From an uncultured bacterium (GTDB taxonomy: Bacteria; Zhuqueibacterota; QNDG01; DSAB01): a stretch of 64,000 nt of DNA. A model generated the notes under the pieces. That model made no database searches, was not told the DNA's origin, and worked only from the letters and a program-made list of their open reading frames with translations. The position numbers were made by a program, and so were the translations under genes. The number at the start of each line of letters is the position of its first letter. Positions within the stretch are counted from its first letter, which is position 1. The stretch lies in contig CAZYVD010000010.1 of NCBI GenBank assembly GCA_964651045.1, positions 828 through 64,827 on the forward strand. Direction: 5' to 3'. Shown piece by piece: positions 23,836 to 35,655 of the stretch.

Positions 23836-24870
23836 ATGGGGAGGTATATGAAACATAGTATAGTCAAACCCATCCTTTTAACAATACTTTTCTCAGCCAT
23901 ACTTTCAGGACAAACATATTCTATTCCAGACTCATCAGAAAATATAAGAGTAACTCTATCTGCAGAAATATCTCACAAATCTGTACCATTAAACCGTACA
24001 TTCTCACTATCAGTAAAGGTGTTGTGGGAAGGAGACCAGAACAGAATTGAAATCGTTAAGATCGAGGAGCCAATATTATCAAACTGCGAAATAACAGGAA
24101 CCTCTGTATCAAACAGAGTGACAGGAACATCGGGTAGTCAAAAGGCAGAAAGGGAGATTAGCTATAAACTTAAGCCACACTCCCTGGGAATGGCCTATAT
24201 AGAAGAGGTTCTTCTTACATACAAGGACAGAAAAACAGACAAAACCTACACACTCAAAACAGAGAGACTTTCTGTCGAAGTTGTTGATCCAGTCCCTGAA
24301 AATGTGCATAAGAGTAATCTGTGGATACTATTTCTATTCTTGGGGGTTCTGATAACTATCGTCATCATATCTCTATTTATAATTAAAAAAAGATCAGAAG
24401 GGAAGATCGCTCCCCAGCCTCAGAGAATCATAGAAGAAATTTATCTGGAGGAACTAAAAAAGAGCGTTGATCTTAAGGCAAAGAAAACAGATGAGGCCTT
24501 TGGTGTATTATCAAGACTCTTCAGAAGATATCTTTCCGAAAAATTTGGAATATCGGCAACACAGCTTACAACTCAGCAGCTGTTAAAAAAACTGGAAGAA
24601 ACTGATCTGGATGAGAACACAAGAAGGAAATGCGAAAAACTCTTTACAACTGCAGATGTTGTTAAATTCTCAGGCCATGATGCAACACAATCAGAATTAG
24701 AAGATGGCTACACAACGGTCGAAACCATTCTTGAATCGAATCTGTCAAAGATGATTGAGGAAAGGCAGAGAGCAGAACAGCAAATATCAAAAGGGAAAAA
24801 GATATTGAAGATATTTAAAAAAAGCGCTCATCAAGAACTTGAAAGGAGGTTCAATGGACACCAAGATTGA
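23836..24870 (+). CDS. BatD-like N-terminal domain membrane protein
   Basis: Signal, Ig-like region (VPLNRTFSLSV...YKLKP...G), one TM segment, RRYLSEKFG.SA..LTT..L...ADVVKFS; resembles 27730-28782. Confidence 0.55.
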   Translation: MGRYMKHSIVKPILLTILFSAILSGQTYSIPDSSENIRVTLSAEISHKSVPLNRTFSLSVKVLWEGDQNRIEIVKIEEPILSNCEITGTSVSNRVTGTSGSQKAEREISYKLKPHSLGMAYIEEVLLTYKDRKTDKTYTLKTERLSVEVVDPVPENVHKSNLWILFLFLGVLITIVIISLFIIKKRSEGKIAPQPQRIIEEIYLEELKKSVDLKAKKTDEAFGVLSRLFRRYLSEKFGISATQLTTQQLLKKLEETDLDENTRRKCEKLFTTADVVKFSGHDATQSELEDGYTTVETILESNLSKMIEERQRAEQQISKGKKILKIFKKSAHQELERRFNGHQD

Positions 24871-25843
24871 GGCCATCCACAAAAAAATACAGAAAGAGAG
24901 TATATTTATCGACAGGCTAATCGATGAAATTGGTAAGGTAATAGTCGGTCAAAAGTACATGATCGAAAGGCTACTTATAGGGCTTCTTTCCAACGGACAC
25001 GTGCTGCTCGAGGGTGTTCCAGGTCTGGCAAAAACAATGACTGTCAGGACACTCTCAGATGCAATTCAGACAAAATTTCAGCGCATCCAGTTCACTCCTG
25101 ATCTCCTTCCAGCAGATCTTATAGGAACGCTGATATATGATCAAAAGAACGGAAAGTTCCAGACCAAAAAAGGCCCAATTTTCTCGAACATAATTCTTGC
25201 CGACGAAATAAACCGATCACCTGCTAAGGTACAGTCGGCACTGCTTGAGGCAATGCAGGAACGAACAGTTACGATAGGAGACAATACATTTGCCCTTGAG
25301 GATCCATTTCTCGTTCTCGCCACTCAGAACCCGATAGAACAGGAAGGAACCTATCCCCTACCCGAAGCCCAGGTCGACCGCTTCATGCTTAAACTCTCAA
25401 TCGATTATCCGACACCAGAAGAGGAACTCGAGATCATGCGCCGCATGTCAGTAGGCCCTGAACCAAAGGCAGACCCTGTAATCGGGCCAAAGGAGATAAT
25501 TAATGCCAGATCGGTTGTTGAAGAAATTTACATAGATCCAAAGATTCAGCAATACATTGTTGACATCGTATTTGCAACACGAAAACCAAAAGAGTATGGA
25601 CTCGAAGACCTCGTGGAACTAATCGCATATGGCGCATCTCCAAGAGCATCGATCTATCTGTCAAAGGCAGCCAAGGCCCATGCATTCTTGAGAAAGAGGG
25701 GCTATGTGACACCAGAAGATGTAAGGGCAATCGGGATGGACATCCTGCGACACAGGATTATAGTAACATATGAGGCCGAAGCAGAAGAGGTTACATCAGA
25801 GGATGTTGTAAGAAAAGTACTCAACAGAATTGAGGTTCCATAA
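24854..25843 (+). CDS. moxR: MoxR family AAA+ ATPase
   Basis: HVLLEGVPGLAKT, RIQFTPDLLPAD, LADEINR, ATQNPIEQEGTYPLPEAQVDRF, YGASPRA. Confidence 0.96.
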   Translation: MDTKIEAIHKKIQKESIFIDRLIDEIGKVIVGQKYMIERLLIGLLSNGHVLLEGVPGLAKTMTVRTLSDAIQTKFQRIQFTPDLLPADLIGTLIYDQKNGKFQTKKGPIFSNIILADEINRSPAKVQSALLEAMQERTVTIGDNTFALEDPFLVLATQNPIEQEGTYPLPEAQVDRFMLKLSIDYPTPEEELEIMRRMSVGPEPKADPVIGPKEIINARSVVEEIYIDPKIQQYIVDIVFATRKPKEYGLEDLVELIAYGASPRASIYLSKAAKAHAFLRKRGYVTPEDVRAIGMDILRHRIIVTYEAEAEEVTSEDVVRKVLNRIEVP

Positions 25844-25862
25844 CAGAACAACAGGAATAACG

Positions 25863-26741
25863 ATGATTCCAAAAGAGGTTCTTAAAAAGGTCAAACGTCT
25901 CGAAATCACAACAAGGAGTCTTGTAAACGACGTCTTCTCAGGTGAGTACCACTCTGTATTTAAAGGAAGGGGAATGGAATTTTCTGAGGTAAGGGAGTAT
26001 CAAATTGGAGACGACATCCGCACAATAGACTGGAACGTTACAGCAAGATATGGACATCCCTATGTTAAGGTCTTTGATGAAGAGCGTGAGCTAACAGTGA
26101 TGCTACTCGTTGATGCCAGCTCATCTGGAGAATTCGGAACATTCGAGAGGATGAAGGGAGAAATAGGAGTCGAAATCTGTGCCCTACTTGCATTCTCTGC
26201 CATAAAAAACAATGATAAGGTAGGATTGATAATATTTACAGACAAGGTCGAAAAGTTTATCCCACCAAGAAAAGGAAGGACCCATGTTCTAAGGGTGCTG
26301 CGGGAGCTTCTCTATTTTCAGCCTGAGAAGAAAAAAACAGACATAGGTGAAGCACTCGAGTATTTCAACAGAGTAATTAAGAGAAGAAGCGTTGTGTTTC
26401 TTGTTTCAGATTTCATATCTGAAGATTACGAGAATGCACTCAGGATTGCAAATAAGAAGCACGATATAGTTGCTATAAACATAGTCGATCCAAGAGAAAT
26501 AGAGCTGCCCGCTATCGGATATGTGGAACTCGAGGATGCCGAGACAGGCGAGACAATACTGATAAACACATCAGACAGGCAAATACGAAAGGAATTCAAT
26601 GTAAGAACATCAGAAGCATTGATAAACAGAGAGAAACTATTCAAATCGATGAACGTCGACTCTATAATAATTCATACTGATGAATCCTATTTTGAACCTC
26701 TAATGAAATTTTTCAGAACCAGGGCAAAGAGGTTTAGATAA
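25863..26741 (+). CDS. DUF58 (VWA-like) protein
   Basis: SVFKGRGMEFSEVREYQIGDDIRTIDWNVTAR, VDASSS, FLVSDF. Confidence 0.95.
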   Translation: MIPKEVLKKVKRLEITTRSLVNDVFSGEYHSVFKGRGMEFSEVREYQIGDDIRTIDWNVTARYGHPYVKVFDEERELTVMLLVDASSSGEFGTFERMKGEIGVEICALLAFSAIKNNDKVGLIIFTDKVEKFIPPRKGRTHVLRVLRELLYFQPEKKKTDIGEALEYFNRVIKRRSVVFLVSDFISEDYENALRIANKKHDIVAINIVDPREIELPAIGYVELEDAETGETILINTSDRQIRKEFNVRTSEALINREKLFKSMNVDSIIIHTDESYFEPLMKFFRTRAKRFR

Positions 26742-26773
26742 TCGCAGTCATGAAAAAATTTAGAGGGTGGAAC

Positions 26774-27712
26774 ATGAAAAACCTGAACATTTCAATTCTC
26801 TGTACGATTCTATCATTGCTGCTAATATTTTCTCTCTGTTCGAATCCTCAAAAATCACAAGTGGATGCGGACAGAATCAGAAGCTATGCGAATGCCCTCT
26901 ATAACAGAGAACTTCATACTCAGGCAATAAGAGAGTATCAGCGTTATCTGGATCAATTTCCCGTCAGCAAAAAACAGAGAGCAAACATCAACTTCATTAT
27001 CGGCAACATCTATTTTGACAGACTCCATGATTATGAAAACGCCATGTCCTATTATCTCAAAGTAAAATATCTATTTCCAGAATCAGAATTAATCGAAAGT
27101 GTCAACAAGAAAATAGTCGAGTGTCTAGAGAGACTACAGCGAACCGCAGATGCCAAACAGGCTATGGATGAAACAATCCGTCTCGACTCGCATGCAGAGA
27201 AGGGTTCACGTCCTGGAGAAGTTATTGCAAGGATAGGTGAACGCAAAATAACATCTGGAGATCTGAAATACTACATAAGTCGACTGCCAGAATACCTTCA
27301 ATCCCAATTCAAAGACAGAAAATCAAAGATTGAATTTTTAAAAAACTACATCGCAACAGAGCTTTTCTACGACGCTGCAAAGCGAAAGGGTTTGGACAGA
27401 GATAAGGATGTTATAGAGGGAACATTCCAGGCAAAAAAACAGCTTATGGTTCAGAAATATCTTGAACAGGAGATATCTCCTGAGCTTAAGATTACTCCTG
27501 ATGAAGTAGAACTCTACTACAAGGCAAACATGGAAAAATATGTTGAAAAGGATGAAAAGGGTAAAATAAAGAGACAAAAACCGTTCAGTGAAGTAAGAGA
27601 AGATGTTGTTAGAGACCTGATGAAAGAAAAACAGAAGAATGCGCTCGAAAGACTGCTTGAGAGAATGATGAATGCAGAGAATGTAAAGATCTATGAGGAC
27701 CTGATAAAATAA
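26774..27712 (+). CDS. TPR plus PrsA/SurA-like foldase scaffold protein
   Basis: N-terminal TPR-like repeats; VIARIGERKIT..DL...ELFYDAAKRKGLD...ITPDEVELYY...KPFSEVR resembles the PrsA/SurA N/C domain. Confidence 0.6.
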   Translation: MKNLNISILCTILSLLLIFSLCSNPQKSQVDADRIRSYANALYNRELHTQAIREYQRYLDQFPVSKKQRANINFIIGNIYFDRLHDYENAMSYYLKVKYLFPESELIESVNKKIVECLERLQRTADAKQAMDETIRLDSHAEKGSRPGEVIARIGERKITSGDLKYYISRLPEYLQSQFKDRKSKIEFLKNYIATELFYDAAKRKGLDRDKDVIEGTFQAKKQLMVQKYLEQEISPELKITPDEVELYYKANMEKYVEKDEKGKIKRQKPFSEVREDVVRDLMKEKQKNALERLLERMMNAENVKIYEDLIK

Positions 27713-27729
27713 CCGGTAAGTTTTTGATT

Positions 27730-28782
27730 ATGAAGCCTAAATCGATTAAAATCATTTATCTGGTTGCGGTCATCCTGATGATCGTGGCCACAGCTTATGC
27801 AAATAAGTCGCCAATAACGATCACATCAAACGTTGATAAATCTCGAATAACAATCGGAGATCTTATAACCTACTCTATAATAGTAGAGCACGATAAAGAT
27901 GTAAGAGTCGAGATGCCTGGGATGGGCGCAAATCTGGGACAATTCGAGATCAGAGACTACAGGGTACATGAACCAAAGAAACAAAAGGAGAGAATAATAT
28001 CTAGATGGGATTATATCATCTCAACATTTTTTACTGGTGAGTTCGAAATTCCGCCATTGACCGTAAAGTATACTCTGCCACAAGATACTACTTCATACTA
28101 TCTTCAGACAGAAAAGATAAAAATTGTGGTAGAGAGCGTCAAGCCAAGCAAAGAGGGTGATATTCGCGACATAAAACCACCGGTCAATATTCCTGCAGAT
28201 CTGTGGTCAACACTGCGGTGGATAATATTAACAGTCCTGCTGATCAGTACTGGAATTGTGCTGTTTATTATTTACAGAAGAAAAAAGAGCGGTAAGGTGC
28301 CTCTTGCACAGCGGTTTACTCCTCCCAGGCCGCCCCATGAGACTGCTCTAGAGGAGCTGAATAATCTGAAAAATTCAAATCTACTGCAAGATGGGGAGAT
28401 AAAAAAGTACTACATTCGAATATCGGAAATAATCAGAAGATACATTGAAGGCAGATACTTCATAACGGCAATGGAAATGACAACTACAGAGGTACTTCTA
28501 CGCCTCTCCAGAGAGGATGTAAATAGTGAAGAGTTACGGCTTTTTGAACAGTTCCTGAACAGGTGCGACCTTGTTAAATTTGCCAAATTAAAACCATCGG
28601 ATGAAGAGAATGAAGAGGTTTTAAATCTTGCATACGAGATTATCAACAGAACAAAAGTAGTACTGGAAACTCAGCAGAACGAGGCAAATAAAGAACGGGC
28701 AGAAGCAGTTACAAGCGAGGAGGAAAAGGTTACAACATTGGAGCCAGAAGTTAGGAATGAAAATACAGAACAAATAAAATAA
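27730..28782 (+). CDS. Bat-cluster membrane protein (BatD-like N-terminus)
   Basis: VDKSRITIGD.ITYSI...GEFEIPPL...DIRDIKPP, one TM segment, PHETALEEL...IRRYIEGRY...DLVKFAK. Confidence 0.7.
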   Translation: MKPKSIKIIYLVAVILMIVATAYANKSPITITSNVDKSRITIGDLITYSIIVEHDKDVRVEMPGMGANLGQFEIRDYRVHEPKKQKERIISRWDYIISTFFTGEFEIPPLTVKYTLPQDTTSYYLQTEKIKIVVESVKPSKEGDIRDIKPPVNIPADLWSTLRWIILTVLLISTGIVLFIIYRRKKSGKVPLAQRFTPPRPPHETALEELNNLKNSNLLQDGEIKKYYIRISEIIRRYIEGRYFITAMEMTTTEVLLRLSREDVNSEELRLFEQFLNRCDLVKFAKLKPSDEENEEVLNLAYEIINRTKVVLETQQNEANKERAEAVTSEEEKVTTLEPEVRNENTEQIK

Positions 28783-28793
28783 GAGCCAGGCCG

Positions 28794-29783
28794 ATGTTTT
28801 TTAGATTTGCAAATCCACAATTTTTAATTCTGCTAATTCTGATTCCTCTTCTTATATATCTATATCTAAAAAAATTGAGAAGAGGAGGCACAATACGCTA
28901 TTCCAATCTTGGAATTCTCAAACAAATAAGCACAATCTCCTCAACAAGACCGAGACATCTTCTATTTATTATTCGAATATTTGTTCTCACTCTTCTCATA
29001 ATTGCCTTTGCAAGACCCCAGTCGGGAATCAAGGGCGAAGAAGTTATCACGCAAGGAGTAGACATAATACTGGCAATAGATATATCGAGCTCCATGCTCG
29101 CAGAGGATATTAAACCAAACAGGGTAGAGGCTGTGAAGGCCGTAGCATCAGAATTTATAAAGAGAAGAAAAAGCGACAGGATAGGCATGGTTGTATTTGC
29201 CGGTGAGGCCTACACACAGTGTCCACTGACTCTCGACTATGGAATTCTGCTCAATTTTCTTGAAAAGATCAAGGTGGGAATTATCGAGGATGGCACAGCA
29301 ATTGGAATGGGTCTTGCCACAGCAGTGAACCGTCTTCGCAGCAGTCAGGCCAAATCCAAGCTAATAATCCTTCTTACAGACGGACGAAACAACACAGGTG
29401 AGATCGATCCTATTACGGCTGCTCAGGCAGCTCAGGCCTTTGACATCAGGGTATATACCATAGGTGCAGGAACAAAGGGATCGGCCATGTACCCCGTCAA
29501 TGATCCAATATTCGGAAAAAGGTATGTTCCTGTTCCGGTCGATATTGATGAAAGTACGCTCAAGAAGATAGCAGAAATGACAGGTGGTAAATACTTCAGA
29601 GCAACAAACAGGAAGAGACTCTCAGACATATATAGAGAAATCGACAAAATGGAAAAGACAAAAATTAAGGTGAAGGAGTACACAAGGTATTCGGAACTCT
29701 TCTACTATTTCGCAGGTATCGCCTTTTTATTCATTATGGCAGAGATTGTTCTGGCCAATACAACACTAAGAAAAATTCCATAG
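28794..29783 (+). CDS. batA: VWA-domain protein BatA
   Basis: AFARPQ, DISSSMLAEDIKPNR, DGTAIGMGLA, LLTDGRNN, TGGKYFRA. Confidence 0.9.
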   Translation: MFFRFANPQFLILLILIPLLIYLYLKKLRRGGTIRYSNLGILKQISTISSTRPRHLLFIIRIFVLTLLIIAFARPQSGIKGEEVITQGVDIILAIDISSSMLAEDIKPNRVEAVKAVASEFIKRRKSDRIGMVVFAGEAYTQCPLTLDYGILLNFLEKIKVGIIEDGTAIGMGLATAVNRLRSSQAKSKLIILLTDGRNNTGEIDPITAAQAAQAFDIRVYTIGAGTKGSAMYPVNDPIFGKRYVPVPVDIDESTLKKIAEMTGGKYFRATNRKRLSDIYREIDKMEKTKIKVKEYTRYSELFYYFAGIAFLFIMAEIVLANTTLRKIP

Positions 29784-29800
29784 GAGGACAGTAGAGAAGA

Positions 29801-30832
29801 ATGTTCAGGTTTGGGTTTCAAAATCTTCTCTATCTTTTAATTCTGATTCCATGTCTGATCATTTTTTTCATCTATAGCTTCAGTCAGAAGCGCAAAGCAA
29901 TAAAGCGCTTCGGGAATTCCGATCTTATGAAACACCTTACACGATCTGTAAGCAAAAAACGGCAGATATGGAAAACAGTAATAATGACTTCTGCAATACT
30001 GTCTCTCATACTCTCCCTTGCACGTCCTCAGATAGGTACAAAGCTGAGAACAGTGAGCAGAGAGGGTCAGGATATAATGATTGCACTCGATGTATCGCTT
30101 TCCATGTTGGCAGAGGATATTAAACCAAATCGACTGGCCAAGGCAAAGCATGAAATAGCAACATTCATAGACAACCTTAAGGGAGACAGGGTGGGCCTCA
30201 TTGCATTTGCAGGAAAACCATTCGTACAGTGTCCGCTCACCCTTGACTATGGTGCAGCCAAGATGTTTCTCGATACCATGGAACCAGATATAATACCAGT
30301 TCCAGGAACCGCAATTGCAGGGGCAATTGAAAAAGCAATAGAGAGTTTTGATCAAAAGGAGCGAAAACATAAGGTATTGATTCTAATAACAGACGGGGAA
30401 GATCACGTTGGAAAACCTGTCGAGACGGCCAAGATTGCATCTAAGGAGGGAATAGTAATCTACTGTGTCGGGATCGGATCCCTCCAGGGAGTTCCAATTC
30501 CGGTATACGATTCGAGAGGAAACAGGACAGGATACAAAAAGGACAGAAATGGCAAAGTAGTGATGACAAAACTGGACGAGCTCACATTGGAGAAAATAGC
30601 TCTTGAGACAGGGGGCAAATACTACAGGGCAACGCCTGGGGAGGTTGAACTAAGTAAGATATATGATGAAATATTTAAGATGGAAAAGAAAAAACTGCGG
30701 TCAAAGCAGTATGCTCAATTTGAGGACCGATTCCAGATACTACTTGGATTTTCAATTTTTCTTCTTATTTTGGAGTATTTGATCCCAGAACGAAGAAGGA
30801 TAAAGAAGGAATGGAAAGGACGGTTCGTGTAA
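29801..30832 (+). CDS. batB: VWA-domain protein BatB
   Basis: LARPQIG, DVSLSMLAEDIKPNRL.KAK, ITDGEDH, second VWA gene in the cluster. Confidence 0.88.
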   Translation: MFRFGFQNLLYLLILIPCLIIFFIYSFSQKRKAIKRFGNSDLMKHLTRSVSKKRQIWKTVIMTSAILSLILSLARPQIGTKLRTVSREGQDIMIALDVSLSMLAEDIKPNRLAKAKHEIATFIDNLKGDRVGLIAFAGKPFVQCPLTLDYGAAKMFLDTMEPDIIPVPGTAIAGAIEKAIESFDQKERKHKVLILITDGEDHVGKPVETAKIASKEGIVIYCVGIGSLQGVPIPVYDSRGNRTGYKKDRNGKVVMTKLDELTLEKIALETGGKYYRATPGEVELSKIYDEIFKMEKKKLRSKQYAQFEDRFQILLGFSIFLLILEYLIPERRRIKKEWKGRFV

Positions 30833-30834
30833 AG

Positions 30835-31542
30835 ATGAAGAAGAGTGAAGGGAAATCTGCTCTATTATTTACATTCATTTTTATCCTACCTCTGGTCCTG
30901 AATGCTCAGTCTGTTCACAAAAAGGTAGCAGAGGCCAACAAACTCTTTCACGAACAGAAGTATGATCGGGCCATAAATAAATATCAGGATGCTCTGCTGG
31001 AAGATCCGACATCACCACTGATCCAGTTTAACATGGGAGACGTGCTATACAAAAAGAAAAGCTATGAGAAGGCACTAAAGGCATATCAGAAGGCACTGGA
31101 CTCAAGGGATCCAATGCTGCAATCCAAGGCCTATTATAATATCGGAAACACTCTCTATCGCGCGGGAAAGCTTCCAGAGAGCATAATTGCCTATCAGCAG
31201 GCTCTGAAACTTAATCCAGACGATCAGGATGCAAAATACAATCTTGAATTTGTTCGAAACAAGCTAAAACAAAACCCTAAAAAGCAACAACAGCAGCAGA
31301 ACCAGCAAAAACAACAAAGAGAGGAGAGTGATAAAAAAAACAGACCTGACAACAAGAGGCAGGATCAAAACAAAGAACAAAACGATCAGAAGCAAGAGCA
31401 AAGAAGTGCAGAACAAAAGAGGAAAGAGATGTCTAAGGAGGAGGCCGAAAACCTTCTGAATGCATTAAAAGAAAATCAGAAGAAGATGAAGAAAAAACTC
31501 GCCCGTGCAGGCGGAAAAATTAGGGTTTTAAAAGATTGGTAA
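30835..31542 (+). CDS. batC: TPR protein BatC
   Basis: TPRs (AYYNIGN, DAKYNLE), Gln-rich linker, C-terminal KDW. Confidence 0.85.
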   Translation: MKKSEGKSALLFTFIFILPLVLNAQSVHKKVAEANKLFHEQKYDRAINKYQDALLEDPTSPLIQFNMGDVLYKKKSYEKALKAYQKALDSRDPMLQSKAYYNIGNTLYRAGKLPESIIAYQQALKLNPDDQDAKYNLEFVRNKLKQNPKKQQQQQNQQKQQREESDKKNRPDNKRQDQNKEQNDQKQEQRSAEQKRKEMSKEEAENLLNALKENQKKMKKKLARAGGKIRVLKDW

Positions 31543-31553
31543 TAGAGAATAAG

Positions 31554-33416
31554 ATGAGAATAAGGGGAAAAATCTTTCTGTTTGCATTAACAGTAACGTC
31601 CATTTCTGCGGTCCAAGCGGCAGAGGATTTTCAAATAAAGGCATGGGTCGACAGGAGTGTGATCGGAATCAATGAACAGTTTATTCTAAATGTTGAGCTA
31701 TCGGGCAATGAAGCAGGCAGGGCTTCTACTCCACAGCTTCCAGACATGAATGAGTTTGCCGCTTTTCTTGGAAGTGGCTCATCACAAAATTTTCAGATAA
31801 TAAATGGTGTTACATCTATATCAAAAACAATAAATTACTATTTTCAGGCAACAAAGATAGGTAAGTTTACGATTGGCCCCATAAAAATAAAAGTTAAAAA
31901 TAAAACATATCAAACAGACCCAATCCCGATCGAGATTACTAAATCGTCATCAAAACCACGACAATCGGCTCAATCTCAGAGAAATGTTCAACAGGGACAG
32001 TCAGACATCTCCAATGAAGATATATTTATAAAGACCGTTGTTAATAAGAAAAAAGTTTATCAAAACGAGCCTGTAATAGTAACATATAAAATATATACCC
32101 GTGTAAACATGACTCCTGTGGGATTCACAAAACTTCCAGCTACTACTGGATTCTGGAAAGAAGAATTCCCAATGGGGCAGCAAATCCCCACTCACACAGA
32201 GATAGTTGACGGAAAACGCTATACTGTAGCAACAATTAAAAAAATGGCCCTCTTCCCGATGACTCCGGGGAAAAAGGTAATCGAGCCTCTCGTTCTTCAG
32301 TGCAGAATAAGGGTAAGGAAAAGACGGAGCATGTTCGACGATTTCTTTAATGACGATTTTTTCAGTGATCCATTTGGAAGAACAATCCAAAAAAATATAA
32401 GCTCTGAGCCTGTTATAATAAATGTTATCCCACTTCCAGAGAATGGAAAGCCGAAAGATTTCAAGGGCGTTGTGGGTGACTATAAAATATCTTCATTTGT
32501 AGATAAAGCAGATGTCAAGACAAATGAAGCAATAACATACACATTAACAATTTCAGGAACTGGTAACATACGCTCACTCCCAGAACCTGAAATATCCTTT
32601 TCACATGATCTTGAAGCCTACCCACCCGAGGTTTCAGAAAAGATTGAAAGAAAGGGAAATTCAATTTCTGGAACAAGAACATACGAATACGTTTTAATCC
32701 CCAGAGCTGCTGGCACCCAGAAGATTCAGCCTGTGACATTTACTTTCTTTGACCCTTCATCAAAAACATATAAAACACTTAGAACAGATCCAATAACAAT
32801 TCGCGTGCAAAAGGGAAGAGAGATATCAACACCAATCCCGCAAATAACATCAAAAGAAGAGGTGGAGCTGGTCGGAAAGGAGATCCGATTTATCATGACA
32901 GAACCCCCATCATTTCGGAAAATCGGTGAGGGAATCTTTAAATCTTATACTCTTATCATAATCTTTATTTCACCTCTAATCCTGCTATTTGCTGCAGTTT
33001 CTATAAGAAAACATCAGGATCGGCTGAGAGGAGACATTGCCTATGCCAGAAACAGGAGGGCAGGAAAATTTGCAAGGAAAAGACTCTCCATGGCTCGCTC
33101 TCTACTCAACGTTGAGAGTCAAAAAGAATTTTATGCAGAGGTAGGAAAGGCTCTTCTCGGCTATATCGGAGACAAACTCAATATAGAAGAGGCAGGAATA
33201 ATAAGGGATGAAGTAAAAAATATGTTGACTAAAAAGGGTGTAAGCGAAGAAGTACTGAATCGATTCTTTAAATGTCTCGATATTTGTGATATGAAGCGAT
33301 TCTCGCCCACAGGATCGACCATAGATGAGATGAAGAAATTTTTAAAAGAGGCAGAAGAGTGCCTTGTCATTATGGATCGGCATCTGGCAAAACAAAACAG
33401 GGATTTATCGTCATGA
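31554..33416 (+). CDS. batD: BatD family protein
   Basis: Repeated Ig-like modules; VYQNEPVIVTYKIY; P.DFKGVVG; YVLIPR..G; position after batC. Confidence 0.88.
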   Translation: MRIRGKIFLFALTVTSISAVQAAEDFQIKAWVDRSVIGINEQFILNVELSGNEAGRASTPQLPDMNEFAAFLGSGSSQNFQIINGVTSISKTINYYFQATKIGKFTIGPIKIKVKNKTYQTDPIPIEITKSSSKPRQSAQSQRNVQQGQSDISNEDIFIKTVVNKKKVYQNEPVIVTYKIYTRVNMTPVGFTKLPATTGFWKEEFPMGQQIPTHTEIVDGKRYTVATIKKMALFPMTPGKKVIEPLVLQCRIRVRKRRSMFDDFFNDDFFSDPFGRTIQKNISSEPVIINVIPLPENGKPKDFKGVVGDYKISSFVDKADVKTNEAITYTLTISGTGNIRSLPEPEISFSHDLEAYPPEVSEKIERKGNSISGTRTYEYVLIPRAAGTQKIQPVTFTFFDPSSKTYKTLRTDPITIRVQKGREISTPIPQITSKEEVELVGKEIRFIMTEPPSFRKIGEGIFKSYTLIIIFISPLILLFAAVSIRKHQDRLRGDIAYARNRRAGKFARKRLSMARSLLNVESQKEFYAEVGKALLGYIGDKLNIEEAGIIRDEVKNMLTKKGVSEEVLNRFFKCLDICDMKRFSPTGSTIDEMKKFLKEAEECLVIMDRHLAKQNRDLSS

Positions 33417-34177
33417 AAGGGAATATATATTTTTTAATAGCCATCTTTGCAATAACAGCATCCTACTGTTGCTTTGGCGATGAAAAGATCGATCTTTTTA
33501 ACAAGGGCAATGAATCATATAAGAATGGAAAATATAAGGAGTCGCTCGAAAGCTATTTAAAAATTCTTGATATGGGTTATGAAAGCGGAGAGCTATACTT
33601 CAATATAGGCAACTGCTACTATAAGCTAAACGACATTGGCAGATCAATCCTGTTTTATGAAAAGGCGAAAAAACTCATACCAGGCAATAAAGATTTGAAT
33701 GCAAACCTCCAACTTGCCAGATTAAAAGCAGTGGACAGGATTAAACCCCTGCCCGAATTCTTTTTGTTTAAACTAATAAGAACCATTATTTATCTCTTTC
33801 CTCTATCATTCATGATCTGGACAGCAGCAGGATTCTATACAGCAGCCTTCCTGTTTCTTATAATATGGACACTATCAAGAAAAAGATTTATTCGGCTCTT
33901 CAGCTTAAGAACCAGTATGGTGCTGGGTTCAATATTTCTGCTATTTTCTGTTGGGATAATTGGTCAGACTCTCACAGAGAAGAATAAAAAAGAGGCGGTA
34001 ATACTAGTGGACAAGGTGGATGTCAAGGGCTCACCCAGCGAGGATGGAATCGATGTCTTTTCCCTACATGAAGGAACAAAGGTTCGAATCGACCAGGAGT
34101 CTGACGAATGGATTGAGATTGTTCTTGCAGATGGAAAGGTTGGATGGATAAAGAAAACCATTGTCGGTATAATATGA
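33413..34177 (+). CDS. batE: BatE (TPR plus C-terminal SH3-like)
   Basis: YFNIGNCYYKL..IG.SIL.YEKA; C-terminal LHEGTKVRI...WIEI.LADGKVGWI. Confidence 0.9.
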   Translation: MKGNIYFLIAIFAITASYCCFGDEKIDLFNKGNESYKNGKYKESLESYLKILDMGYESGELYFNIGNCYYKLNDIGRSILFYEKAKKLIPGNKDLNANLQLARLKAVDRIKPLPEFFLFKLIRTIIYLFPLSFMIWTAAGFYTAAFLFLIIWTLSRKRFIRLFSLRTSMVLGSIFLLFSVGIIGQTLTEKNKKEAVILVDKVDVKGSPSEDGIDVFSLHEGTKVRIDQESDEWIEIVLADGKVGWIKKTIVGII

Positions 34178-34233
34178 TAGCGACTGCAATAATTTCAAAT
34201 TAACCGAACTTCGGTGCTGAAACTATGCCCTAT

Positions 34234-34271
34234 AAATATTGTTTATCTCTCTTTGATTTTTCTAAATTTTA
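34234..34271. repeat. 38-bp direct repeat, left copy
   Basis: AAATATTGTTTATCTCTCTTTGATTTTTCTAAATTTTA, identical to 34774-34811. Confidence 0.95.
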
Positions 34272-34277
34272 TTGATC

Positions 34278-34299
34278 CGCAGGGGCTCTTGCCCCTGCG
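34278..34299. repeat. REP-like palindrome, left
   Basis: CGCAGGGGC-tctt-GCCCCTGCG. Confidence 0.85.
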
Positions 34300-34318
34300 C
34301 TAAACAAGAAACAATCAA

Positions 34319-34724
34319 ATGGGTACAAGAGACTACATTCAATTGTATAATAATAGTGACACCTATTATTTTACAACTACTGCTATCGATTGGAAACATA
34401 TTTTTATAAAACGATCTGTTATTTGTACTATTATTTATTGTCAAGCTGCAAATTATACAAGAAGATGCAGATTTGTTATTAAAAAAATTTTATTCCACCA
34501 AATCATATCAAAAGGTCATTTCACAGATTCTGACAGAACGACTCGGATCTGGGGCAGTATATAGGGAAACATTTCTTCGGAGAAAATTAGCGTATATACA
34601 CAAGTACCCAATTCAGCCCCATTGGGTACTTGTAGAGCAACTCGAGGCATATCTTTTCAGCAGTTTTGGATATTGTCATACAGATCAAGACTGGAATGGT
34701 ATCAACATTTTATCATTATTGTGA
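34319..34724 (+). pseudogene. Decayed REP-associated tyrosine transposase (RAYT/Y1 TnpA-like)
   Basis: One frame gives YYFTTTAIDWKHIF...YCQ (RAYT-like N-terminus). Another gives KLAYIHKYPI...LVEQLEAYLFSS (like YIH.NPV..GLV...EDY.YSS). Frameshifted; no HUH motif visible. Confidence 0.7.
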
Positions 34725-34743
34725 GATTAATACAATTCAAAAT

Positions 34744-34765
34744 CGCAGGGGCAAGAGCCCCTGCA
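34744..34765. repeat. REP-like palindrome, right (inverted copy of the left)
   Basis: CGCAGGGGC-aaga-GCCCCTGCA matches the reverse complement of the left copy at 21/22 positions. Confidence 0.85.
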
Positions 34766-34773
34766 GAGCTTAA

Positions 34774-34811
34774 AAATATTGTTTATCTCTCTTTGATTTT
34801 TCTAAATTTTA
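34774..34811. repeat. 38-bp direct repeat, right copy
   Basis: Identical to 34234-34271, 540 bp away. Confidence 0.95.
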
Positions 34812-34818
34812 ATTTCAT

Positions 34819-35655
34819 CTACTCCTTTCCCCTCTCTGCAACACGACGTGACCTTTTTACTATAGCCGCAACAATCAAAGCGAGTCCCATAAAGCTAACA
34901 ACCGAAGGACCGCATGAAAAATCCAGTGAATAGGAAAATGCCAGTCCCACAATAGATGCAGAAATTCCCAGAAGCCAGGCTAGCAACATCCTTTTAAACC
35001 AGCTCGAAGTGAAAATTGCGGCAAATGTAGTCGGTATGATCAAGAATGAAAATATGGCTAAAACACCACCTATTCTGACTGAAATTGTTATAACCAATCC
35101 CATAGATACATAAAATAGAAAATCCCACCATGCTGCTCTGGAATCCTTCTCAATCGTCCTTCGATAATCTTTAGAAAGTGTTGTAAATTTATTTCTAAAA
35201 ATATAATGAAAAAGACCCACGATCAAATACACAGATGTACATATTAAAATATCATGCCATTTTGCCCATAATATGCTTCCTGTCAGCATATGCTCTAAAT
35301 GTACATCCCCTCCTGCAGCAAGAGCGAGTAGAAAAAGAGCAAGTGCTGCAGAGACGGCATACGATACACCGATAATTGCTTCCTGGGTTATCTGTGTAAC
35401 TCGCTTTATTATTTGTGAATAGAAAAATGCTGCCAGTATGGTAAATCCAAATGCTGAAAAATATGCAATTATGCTGGTATCCTCGATCCTCCACAGGGTA
35501 AAAACCAGTACAGTACCAACTGCTGCAACCTGGGCCAAAGCAATATCAATAAACACAATCTCCCTTTCAAGCACATGAATGCCTAAATAACCAAATATTC
35601 CTATCATGACCGCACATGCCACAAATGGAGGAAATAAAAATCCAATTACTTCCAT
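34819..35655 (-). CDS. Metal ABC transporter permease (ABC-3/ZnuB-like)
   Basis: GIHVLEREIVFIDIALAQVAA, EAIIGVSY, LTGSILW, FSFLIIP. Confidence 0.9.
   Translation of the reverse strand: MEVIGFLFPPFVACAVMIGIFGYLGIHVLEREIVFIDIALAQVAAVGTVLVFTLWRIEDTSIIAYFSAFGFTILAAFFYSQIIKRVTQITQEAIIGVSYAVSAALALFLLALAAGGDVHLEHMLTGSILWAKWHDILICTSVYLIVGLFHYIFRNKFTTLSKDYRRTIEKDSRAAWWDFLFYVSMGLVITISVRIGGVLAIFSFLIIPTTFAAIFTSSWFKRMLLAWLLGISASIVGLAFSYSLDFSCGPSVVSFMGLALIVAAIVKRSRRVAERGKE

Follow-up and report, generated by a model that had tools for sequence, protein, structure and literature searches.

A putative non-autonomous mini-REPtron bracketed by a 38-bp direct repeat between two converging operons of an uncultured bacterium

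Locus, flanking genes, and direct repeat

The analyzed stretch of DNA (64 kb at its full length, hereafter the window), which derives from hydrothermal-vent metagenomes, contained a repeat-bracketed cassette in the spacer between two converging operons (Table 1). To the left, positions 23836-34177 harbored a complete Bat/MoxR-type operon, encoding a BatD-like protein, a MoxR AAA_3 ATPase, a DUF58 protein, two products without a family match, BatA, BatB, BatD, and a TPR-SH3 protein. The BatD gene preceded the TPR-SH3 gene on the + strand; their open reading frames overlapped by 58 nt as listed, and the pair ended at 34177. Upstream of this operon, PorV/PorQ, priA, dnaK, and clpB were located, and this gene content taken together fits a host of the FCB group. 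To the right, an operon for ZnuA and two ABC-3 permeases ended at 34819 on the - strand. The nearest homolog of the permease was 69% identical and its locus was non-syntenic, and named relatives belonged to candidate division KSB1, Krumholzibacteriota, and Latescibacteria. The flanking genes were thus as described in an earlier sequence-only reading of this DNA, which had placed the cassette where batE and the metal operon converge. A search of the whole window against Rfam yielded no match.

Table 1. Positions of the cassette, its parts, and its neighboring genes in the window.
Feature	Positions	Strand	Basis or remark
Left flanking gene, TPR and SH3 protein (BatE-like), last of the Bat/MoxR operon	33359-34177	+	
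Left copy of the exact 38-bp direct repeat	34234-34271		Repeat search
Left REP unit, 42 nt	34265-34306	+	T-run, TTGATCC, and a hairpin with a 9-bp stem at 34278-34299
Whole element (putative non-autonomous mini-REPtron), ~508 bp	34266-34773	+	Where the flanks of other copies diverge
RAYT remnant, N-terminal piece, residues 1-39	34319-34435	+	tblastn of P0001, E=2e-11
Junction of the 212-nt internal deletion	34429-34449	+	
RAYT remnant, C-terminal piece, residues 109-205	34431-34724	+	tblastn of P0001 (to 34721), E=5e-28
Right inverted REP (iREP) and TIR arm	34744-34777	-	Hairpin at 34744-34765
Right copy of the exact 38-bp direct repeat	34774-34811		Repeat search
Right flanking gene, ABC-3 metal-transporter permease, last of the ZnuA/ABC-3 operon	34819-35655	-	

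The 38-mer, AAATATTGTTTATCTCTCTTTGATTTTTCTAAATTTTA, occurred exactly twice in the 64-kb window, with its copies 540 bp apart, where the expected number of chance matches was 0 in shuffled sequence; the perfect direct repeats that had been claimed were therefore found as such. The repeat grew to 41 nt when one mismatch was allowed, and its right copy stopped 7 nt short of the stop codon of the permease. The order that had been read from the letters, i.e., direct repeat, REP, broken RAYT, inverted REP, and direct repeat, was correct by the positions of the repeats, the hairpins, and the tblastn matches.

This layout was recovered in independent assemblies. The ENA contig k141_436786 (92 kb, MEGAHIT k=141) covered the whole locus at 99.9% identity, and k141_10543, from a second sample, contained the left flank, the first repeat copy, the element, and the second repeat copy up to 34819. 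Position 34588 was C in both ENA assemblies and T in the window, the sole difference inside the element among the three assemblies; the window therefore represents a third source, and the inserted copy is nearly invariant across samples. Furthermore, Logan contigs crossed each junction with 0 mismatches (X9 record 10, 34074-34388; X7 record 18, 34687-34837), these contigs being 151-315 nt in length and derived from low-coverage runs. A chimeric path through the repeat graph that joins an empty site to an element from elsewhere could in principle produce such a locus, as the element family is repetitive and the k=31 Logan unitigs are interrupted precisely where the 38-mer meets its surroundings. 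However, such breaks are expected for any 38-bp repeat, and the agreement of two k=141 assemblies of different samples with the source of the window, together with the contigs across both junctions, argues strongly against an artefact. The window copy was also unique, differing by ~10% from other copies, and single-copy, with its own unitigs matching the depth of the flanks (e.g., 17-19 vs. 16.9 in X1). The depth of the 38-mer unitig in X2 (15.9, vs. 8.1 and 6.2 in the flanks) was consistent with two copies per genome. An assembly error, which the earlier reading had wanted to exclude by read mapping, thus appears extremely improbable on the evidence of contigs and unitigs.

No contig that skipped the 540 nt was detected in 12 hydrothermal-vent metagenome runs, in which k=31 contigs separate empty and filled alleles by depth only, and searches for exact matches to the proteins of both flanking genes yielded nothing but the filled locus or contigs that were broken at the element. 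The equal depth of the window copy and its flanks also argues against a sizeable subpopulation with an empty site. The insertion appears to be fixed, and its precise excision by recombination between the two 38-mers, which had been proposed, is plausible.

REP hairpins and the RAYT remnant

The left hairpin, GCAGGGGCTCTTGCCCCTGC, was located at 34279-34298 and the right hairpin, GCAGGGGCAAGAGCCCCTGC, at 34745-34764; the right inverted REP, read on the - strand, was identical to the left REP in its hairpin and loop. These were the only hairpins of this kind in the 64-kb window. Both lay within 34-nt inverted arms (34266-34299 and 34744-34777) that were 85% complementary, and both showed strong single-stranded DNA folding compared to shuffled sequence (z about -4). 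The arrangement that defines a REPtron, a transposase gene between a REP and an inverted REP, was found at the locus, and the relatives carried similar inverted hairpins with covariation in the stem. The boundaries of the element, each uncertain by a few nt, were taken from vent contigs matched to the locus, in which the flanks of other copies diverged at 34265-34280 on the left and at 34773-34776 on the right. The 42-nt left REP unit also occurred as a solo REP in an unrelated context (X4 record 27).

The right REP (34744-34765, - strand), followed by ATTTTGAATT, was the only terminator-like site found in 34000-35000, and it sat 54 nt downstream of the stop codon of the ABC-3 permease. Judged from this position, the metal-transporter operon may now end at a terminator supplied by the insertion.

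All intact relatives for which sufficient flanking sequence was available (L001, L004, L006, L096, L098, and L101) displayed the same layout, which consisted of (G)CTCC-GCAGGGGC-loop-GCCCCTGC-GG upstream of the gene and its inverse downstream. In L016 and L017, at ~50% protein identity, the hairpin read GCAGAGGC...GCCTCTGC, with a compensatory GC>AU change in the stem. When 19 ends were aligned, 96.8% of the cells paired, compared to 40-47% when the partner column was shifted. The consensus of these 19 ends was TTTT-NN-GCTCC-GCAGGGGC and contained no GTAG. Each strand of the element starts, from 5' to 3', with a T-run, 2-5 nt, (G)CTCC, and then the identical hairpin including its loop; the conserved tag 5' of the foot of the palindrome is thus (G)CTCC, with a T-run ahead of it. 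The earlier reading was right that GCAG takes the place of the usual GTAG, but here it forms part of the stem.

The only two REPs in the 64 kb were those of the cassette. Solo REPs were identified in metagenomes and in a related MAG (X4 record 27, L015, and L098). A search for the REP pattern in GTDB representative genomes detected one solo REP in another MAG and nothing from the host genome. In L098, a solo inverted REP was located at about 387-406, ~1 kb upstream of an intact RAYT, and the MAG to which this contig belongs (CAYUAG01) contained another solo REP on a different contig (L015:3541-3560). Dispersed REPs thus coexist with one intact RAYT in this genome. Two left REPs were arranged in tandem at L017:222-316. 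Two other types of palindromic repeats, TCCTCGTTCC-N13-GGGAACGAGGA and GCACGACC-ACAAG-GGTCGTGC, adjoined REPs or copies of the element, namely in right flanks behind 34764, 34774, and 34775, at L015:3490-3530, and at L002:about 480-510, which suggests BIME-like mosaics of several repeat families.

The gene between the two hairpins was compared by tblastn with P0001, an intact 205-aa relative. Residues ~40-108, including the HUH motif MPNHxHW, were gone via a 212-nt deletion, and the remnant carried three private lesions, namely an insertion of 1 nt near 34497, a TGG>TGA change at 34531-34533, and a loss of 1 nt near 34553. The lesions thus totaled four (the deletion, two frameshifts, and one nonsense codon), and the claim of a frameshifted RAYT that lacks its HUH segment was borne out by the tblastn gap at residues 40-108 and by the two frameshifts. 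MPNH[IL]HW was found in all intact relatives and was absent from the remnant; the window copy is therefore a pseudogene. The motif of the catalytic tyrosine, Y-I-x-x-N-P in the C-terminal helix, was kept as YIHKYP at 34593-34610; its counterparts in the alignment were YIH(N/K)(N/Y)P in the relatives and YIYINP in 4ER8.

Scans of the two open reading frame pieces and of their read-through against Pfam and NCBIfam detected no Y1_Tnp or RAYT match. A weak match of the remnant to YafQ (E=0.024) was dismissed. The read-through of both pieces matched a small set of 205-aa proteins (E=5e-34 to 5e-18), of which P0001, P0004, P0005, and P0006 scored 81-96 bits on NCBIfam NF047646 (REP-associated tyrosine transposase, cutoff 80). 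These relatives matched Pfam Y1_Tnp weakly (21-31 bits, cutoff 23), and as a profile they matched PDB 4ER8, the TnpArep of E. coli (E=1e-7). The similarity to Y1_Tnp on which the earlier reading had staked the assignment was thus absent from the remnant itself but weakly present in its 205-aa relatives, and by strong transitive homology the remnant is a RAYT, although no profile detects it directly. The subfamily is rare, with 11 clusters at E<=1e-30 among 1.84 billion representative proteins. A metagenome scan with the RAYT alignment yielded two close relatives (L016 and L017), the other matches being distant Y1 proteins.

Copies in vent metagenomes and the history of the insertion

Assembled contigs and unitigs from the 12 vent runs (X-numbered) were compared with the locus. 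The summed contig depth inside 34247-34785 was ~20-400, compared to 4-17 in the flanks, and the copies continued into many different flanks, so that the element family, which is rare, is multicopy in vent communities. Full-length copies were present in X1, X3, X4, X8, X10, and X12, where contigs continued past 34428 with an intact CCTCATCAATAG... sequence. A second variant spanned the same 212-nt deletion junction as the window copy, colinearly and without a gap, at depths of 32, 18, 3, and 16 in X1, X4, X7, and X8, respectively. It differed from the window at ~13 of the 114 positions next to the junction; on the right-hand side of the junction, it was identical to intact L001 and free of the three private lesions of the window copy, and its left flank in a 519-nt contig of X7 was unrelated to that of the window. 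As the 212-nt deletion is common to a diverged copy at another left flank, the deletion predates the split of the two copies and the deleted form has spread. Shorter derivatives were also detected: contigs in X1-X5 and X8 skipped 34342-34565 (also 34341-34563 and 34603-34717) at depths of 5-23, and the form that skips 34342>34565 would measure ~286 bp. Forms of ~720 bp, 508 bp, and ~286 bp look like a REPtron that is shrinking towards a REPIN-like doublet.

The sequence-only reading had called the cassette a fossil. In such a scenario, an autonomous REPtron was inserted or inherited here, its RAYT decayed in place, and the repeat dates from that arrival. This would be in line with a gene that is broken in four ways, with the presence of only one copy in the 64-kb window, and with the notion that RAYTs are usually single-copy and vertically inherited (PMC5581495, PMC3333891). 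However, decay in place does not account for a 212-nt deletion that is common to a diverged copy with a different left flank, nor for a multicopy family with many flanks, and a perfect 38/38 repeat is unlikely beside an element divergence of ~10%. The fossil scenario is accordingly quite improbable. The shared deletion and the coexistence of intact and shorter copies indicate that the element was already non-autonomous at insertion. The claim that the cassette arrived as a unit was supported, and it was presumably trans-mobilized by an intact RAYT, as far as co-occurring sequences can tell.

The window element was 90.2% identical at the DNA level to its nearest intact copy, L001. If the 38-bp repeat were as old as this divergence, the probability of 38/38 identity would be ~3e-4 to 2e-2, a calculation that takes 76 nt as unchanged at 5-10% divergence and presumes neutral and equal rates and no gene conversion between the copies. 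The repeat is thus inferred to be young relative to the element and to the decay of its gene, in agreement with the earlier proposal that the duplication is recent. The repeat copies directly adjoin both termini of the element, which is the geometry of a target duplication. The last 6 nt of the left copy (ATTTTA, 34266-34271) are the conserved left terminus of the element, and at least four copies whose flanks are unrelated had ATTTTA ahead of the TTGnTCC-REP; in the right copy, AAA (34774-34776) lies within the bottom-strand T-run 5' of the REP. The inner ends of both repeat copies hence overlap the T-rich termini, and microhomology or a T-rich target motif at the junctions is possible.

No flanking direct repeat of at least 9 nt was found at ~12 other copies of the family, for which both sides were checked. 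These included L001 and L096, which belong to the young subfamily of the window copy; only 2-3 of the comparison copies belonged to this subfamily, and the rest are possibly old enough for a repeat to have decayed. Pairing the left and right flanks of other copies for hidden duplications was limited by unitigs that were too short, and the sole resemblance was another palindromic repeat. The lack of a flanking repeat at the ~12 other copies indicates that the 38-bp duplication is a one-off and not a regular product of transposition. The earlier suggestion of a route that leaves a long duplication is thus not supported, as far as a regular route is meant.

Long duplications of variable length could nevertheless be regular in this family if the RAYT joined each strand of the REPtron to one T-rich motif per target strand, and the other copies would then lack repeats because they are old or were inserted by a single-strand route. 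The element is symmetric in the required way, with a T-run, N, (G)CTCC, and the identical hairpin on each strand, and the sequences at the borders of the 38-mer are ...AAATTTTA (top strand) and ...AATATTT (bottom strand). On the other hand, none of the ~12 other copies, including the young L001 and L096, had a flanking repeat, the reaction has no known biochemical precedent, and T-rich motifs arise easily by chance in AT-rich sequence. Regular duplication is therefore highly doubtful. It is a similarly long shot that the 38-bp repeat represents the first footprint of a REPtron moving as a double-stranded unit, with the RAYT acting on both strands. If this were true, the strands would be joined to two inverted T-rich motifs on opposite target strands, the length of the duplication after fill-in would correspond to the spacing of these motifs, and it would reveal a target-duplication route that has not been described for HUH/Y1 transposons.

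The duplication might also be independent of the insertion. In one version, a tandem of 38+38 nt existed beforehand and the element hit its junction; in a multi-step version, insertion without target duplication was followed by a 540-bp tandem duplication, after which a Y1 transposase excised the second element precisely, as enzymes of the IS200/IS605 type do. A possible parallel occurs at the left terminus of the same family, where L001:1270-2003 contained a 366-bp head-to-tail duplication with 1 mismatch, comprising the left REP and the first ~300 nt of the intact RAYT. The boundary of this duplication was 3 nt inside the left terminus of the element, with ATTG microhomology at the junction; it may represent either a genuine tandem or an assembly loop in a 2.7-kb MAG contig, and it suggests that the ends of this element family are prone to duplication events. 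However, an independent origin of the 38-bp repeat needs two to three events with end points within a few nt of both element termini, and no trace of a tandem 38-mer was found elsewhere in the 64-kb window. Such a history is unlikely, albeit slightly less so than decay in place or regular duplication. Matches to the REP and 38-mer patterns in viral contigs were not found, so that an att-site or phage origin is without support. An origin by Campbell-type integration was also rejected, since a circle with the 38-mer could have come from no locus other than this one.

The favored interpretation, with a probability of roughly 0.6, is that a non-autonomous mini-REPtron that was dead before its arrival was moved in trans and that the 38-bp repeat is a one-off target duplication of this insertion. 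The internal 212-nt deletion would have removed the HUH segment before the element reached its present site, and an intact 205-aa RAYT of the kind that co-occurs in the same metagenomes would have acted in trans on the two hairpin ends. The element would then have landed between the converging Bat and metal-ABC operons, in a spacer of ~100 bp, where the target was probably duplicated during that single insertion and not by regular transposition chemistry. The duplication could have arisen (a) by microhomology-guided joining or template switching at a hairpin-stalled fork, or (b) by joining of the element strands at two T-rich motifs in inverted orientation, spaced by 38 bp, with subsequent fill-in. 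Among Y1/HUH elements, whose insertion is described as free of target duplication (PMC2817692), neither (a) nor (b) has a known precedent. One point against the favored interpretation is that the state before insertion, with one 38-mer or two, was unseen in the search for an empty site.

The same vent communities thus contained intact REPtrons of ~720 bp, a dead copy of 508 bp, derivatives of ~286 bp, and solo REPs, which form a graded series. Such a series is expected if REPINs arise from REPtrons by internal deletion and are still mobile in trans. REPtrons have been described as incapable of transposition as a whole unit. The vent family offers a natural system for studying the en-bloc mobility of REPtrons and what a non-GTAG RAYT requires of its ends and targets. 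The 38-bp duplication, if reproducible, would bear on the mechanism of insertion; otherwise, it is a one-off accident of repair or replication at a hairpin-ended insertion.

Comparison with known systems

Similar to the E. coli-type REPtron (tnpA_REP/RayT; 4ER8; PMC3333891, PMC8266576), the family carries a Y1/HUH gene of the RAYT clade between inverted REP hairpins, and solo REPs are dispersed elsewhere. In contrast, GTAG is lacking here and is replaced by a T-run and (G)CTCC, with GCAG inside the stem, which pairs perfectly over 9-10 bp without a bulge, and the protein, at 205 aa, is ~45 aa longer than the model. REP density is also low, with two REPs in 64 kb, both in the cassette. The element itself is multicopy and accompanied by deletion derivatives; it has been moved as one unit, and one copy has a 38-bp duplication. 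The window element also resembles the REPIN-RAYT system of Pseudomonas (PMC3116915, PMC5581495), in which two inverted REPs form a mobile non-autonomous unit that depends on a RAYT in trans. However, the spacer is 445 bp in the window element and still contains a RAYT pseudogene, and derivatives of ~286 bp occur as well. The element has the appearance of a stage between REPtron and REPIN, not of a short REPIN doublet, and hundreds of copies per genome are not indicated.

The family shares with IS200/IS605 elements (IS608, ISDra2) and their palindrome-associated, MITE-like derivatives a Y1 transposase, hairpin ends, and internally deleted non-autonomous copies, as well as a short stretch of conserved sequence, perhaps a target motif, on the 5' side of the left end. 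As in MITE-like families, the same internally deleted, non-coding form was found at more than one locus, with intact copies as the putative autonomous partner in the same runs; the constant-length, short target-site duplication of such families was absent, as only the window copy has a repeat and this measures 38 bp. IS200/IS605 elements carry hairpins on one strand, have no terminal inverted repeats, and generate no target duplications (PMC2817692), whereas the window element has 34-nt inverted arms and a 38-bp direct repeat. Some RAYT groups do show IS-like duplication (PMC5581495). TIRtrons and their TIRYTs (PMC3733652) are similar in that a tyrosine transposase gene is located between TIRs that include a stem-loop and in that the host genome is probably REP-poor, to judge from the 64-kb window; on the other hand, the protein of the present family scores as a bona fide RAYT, and the core of its TIR is a REP that is also found solo.
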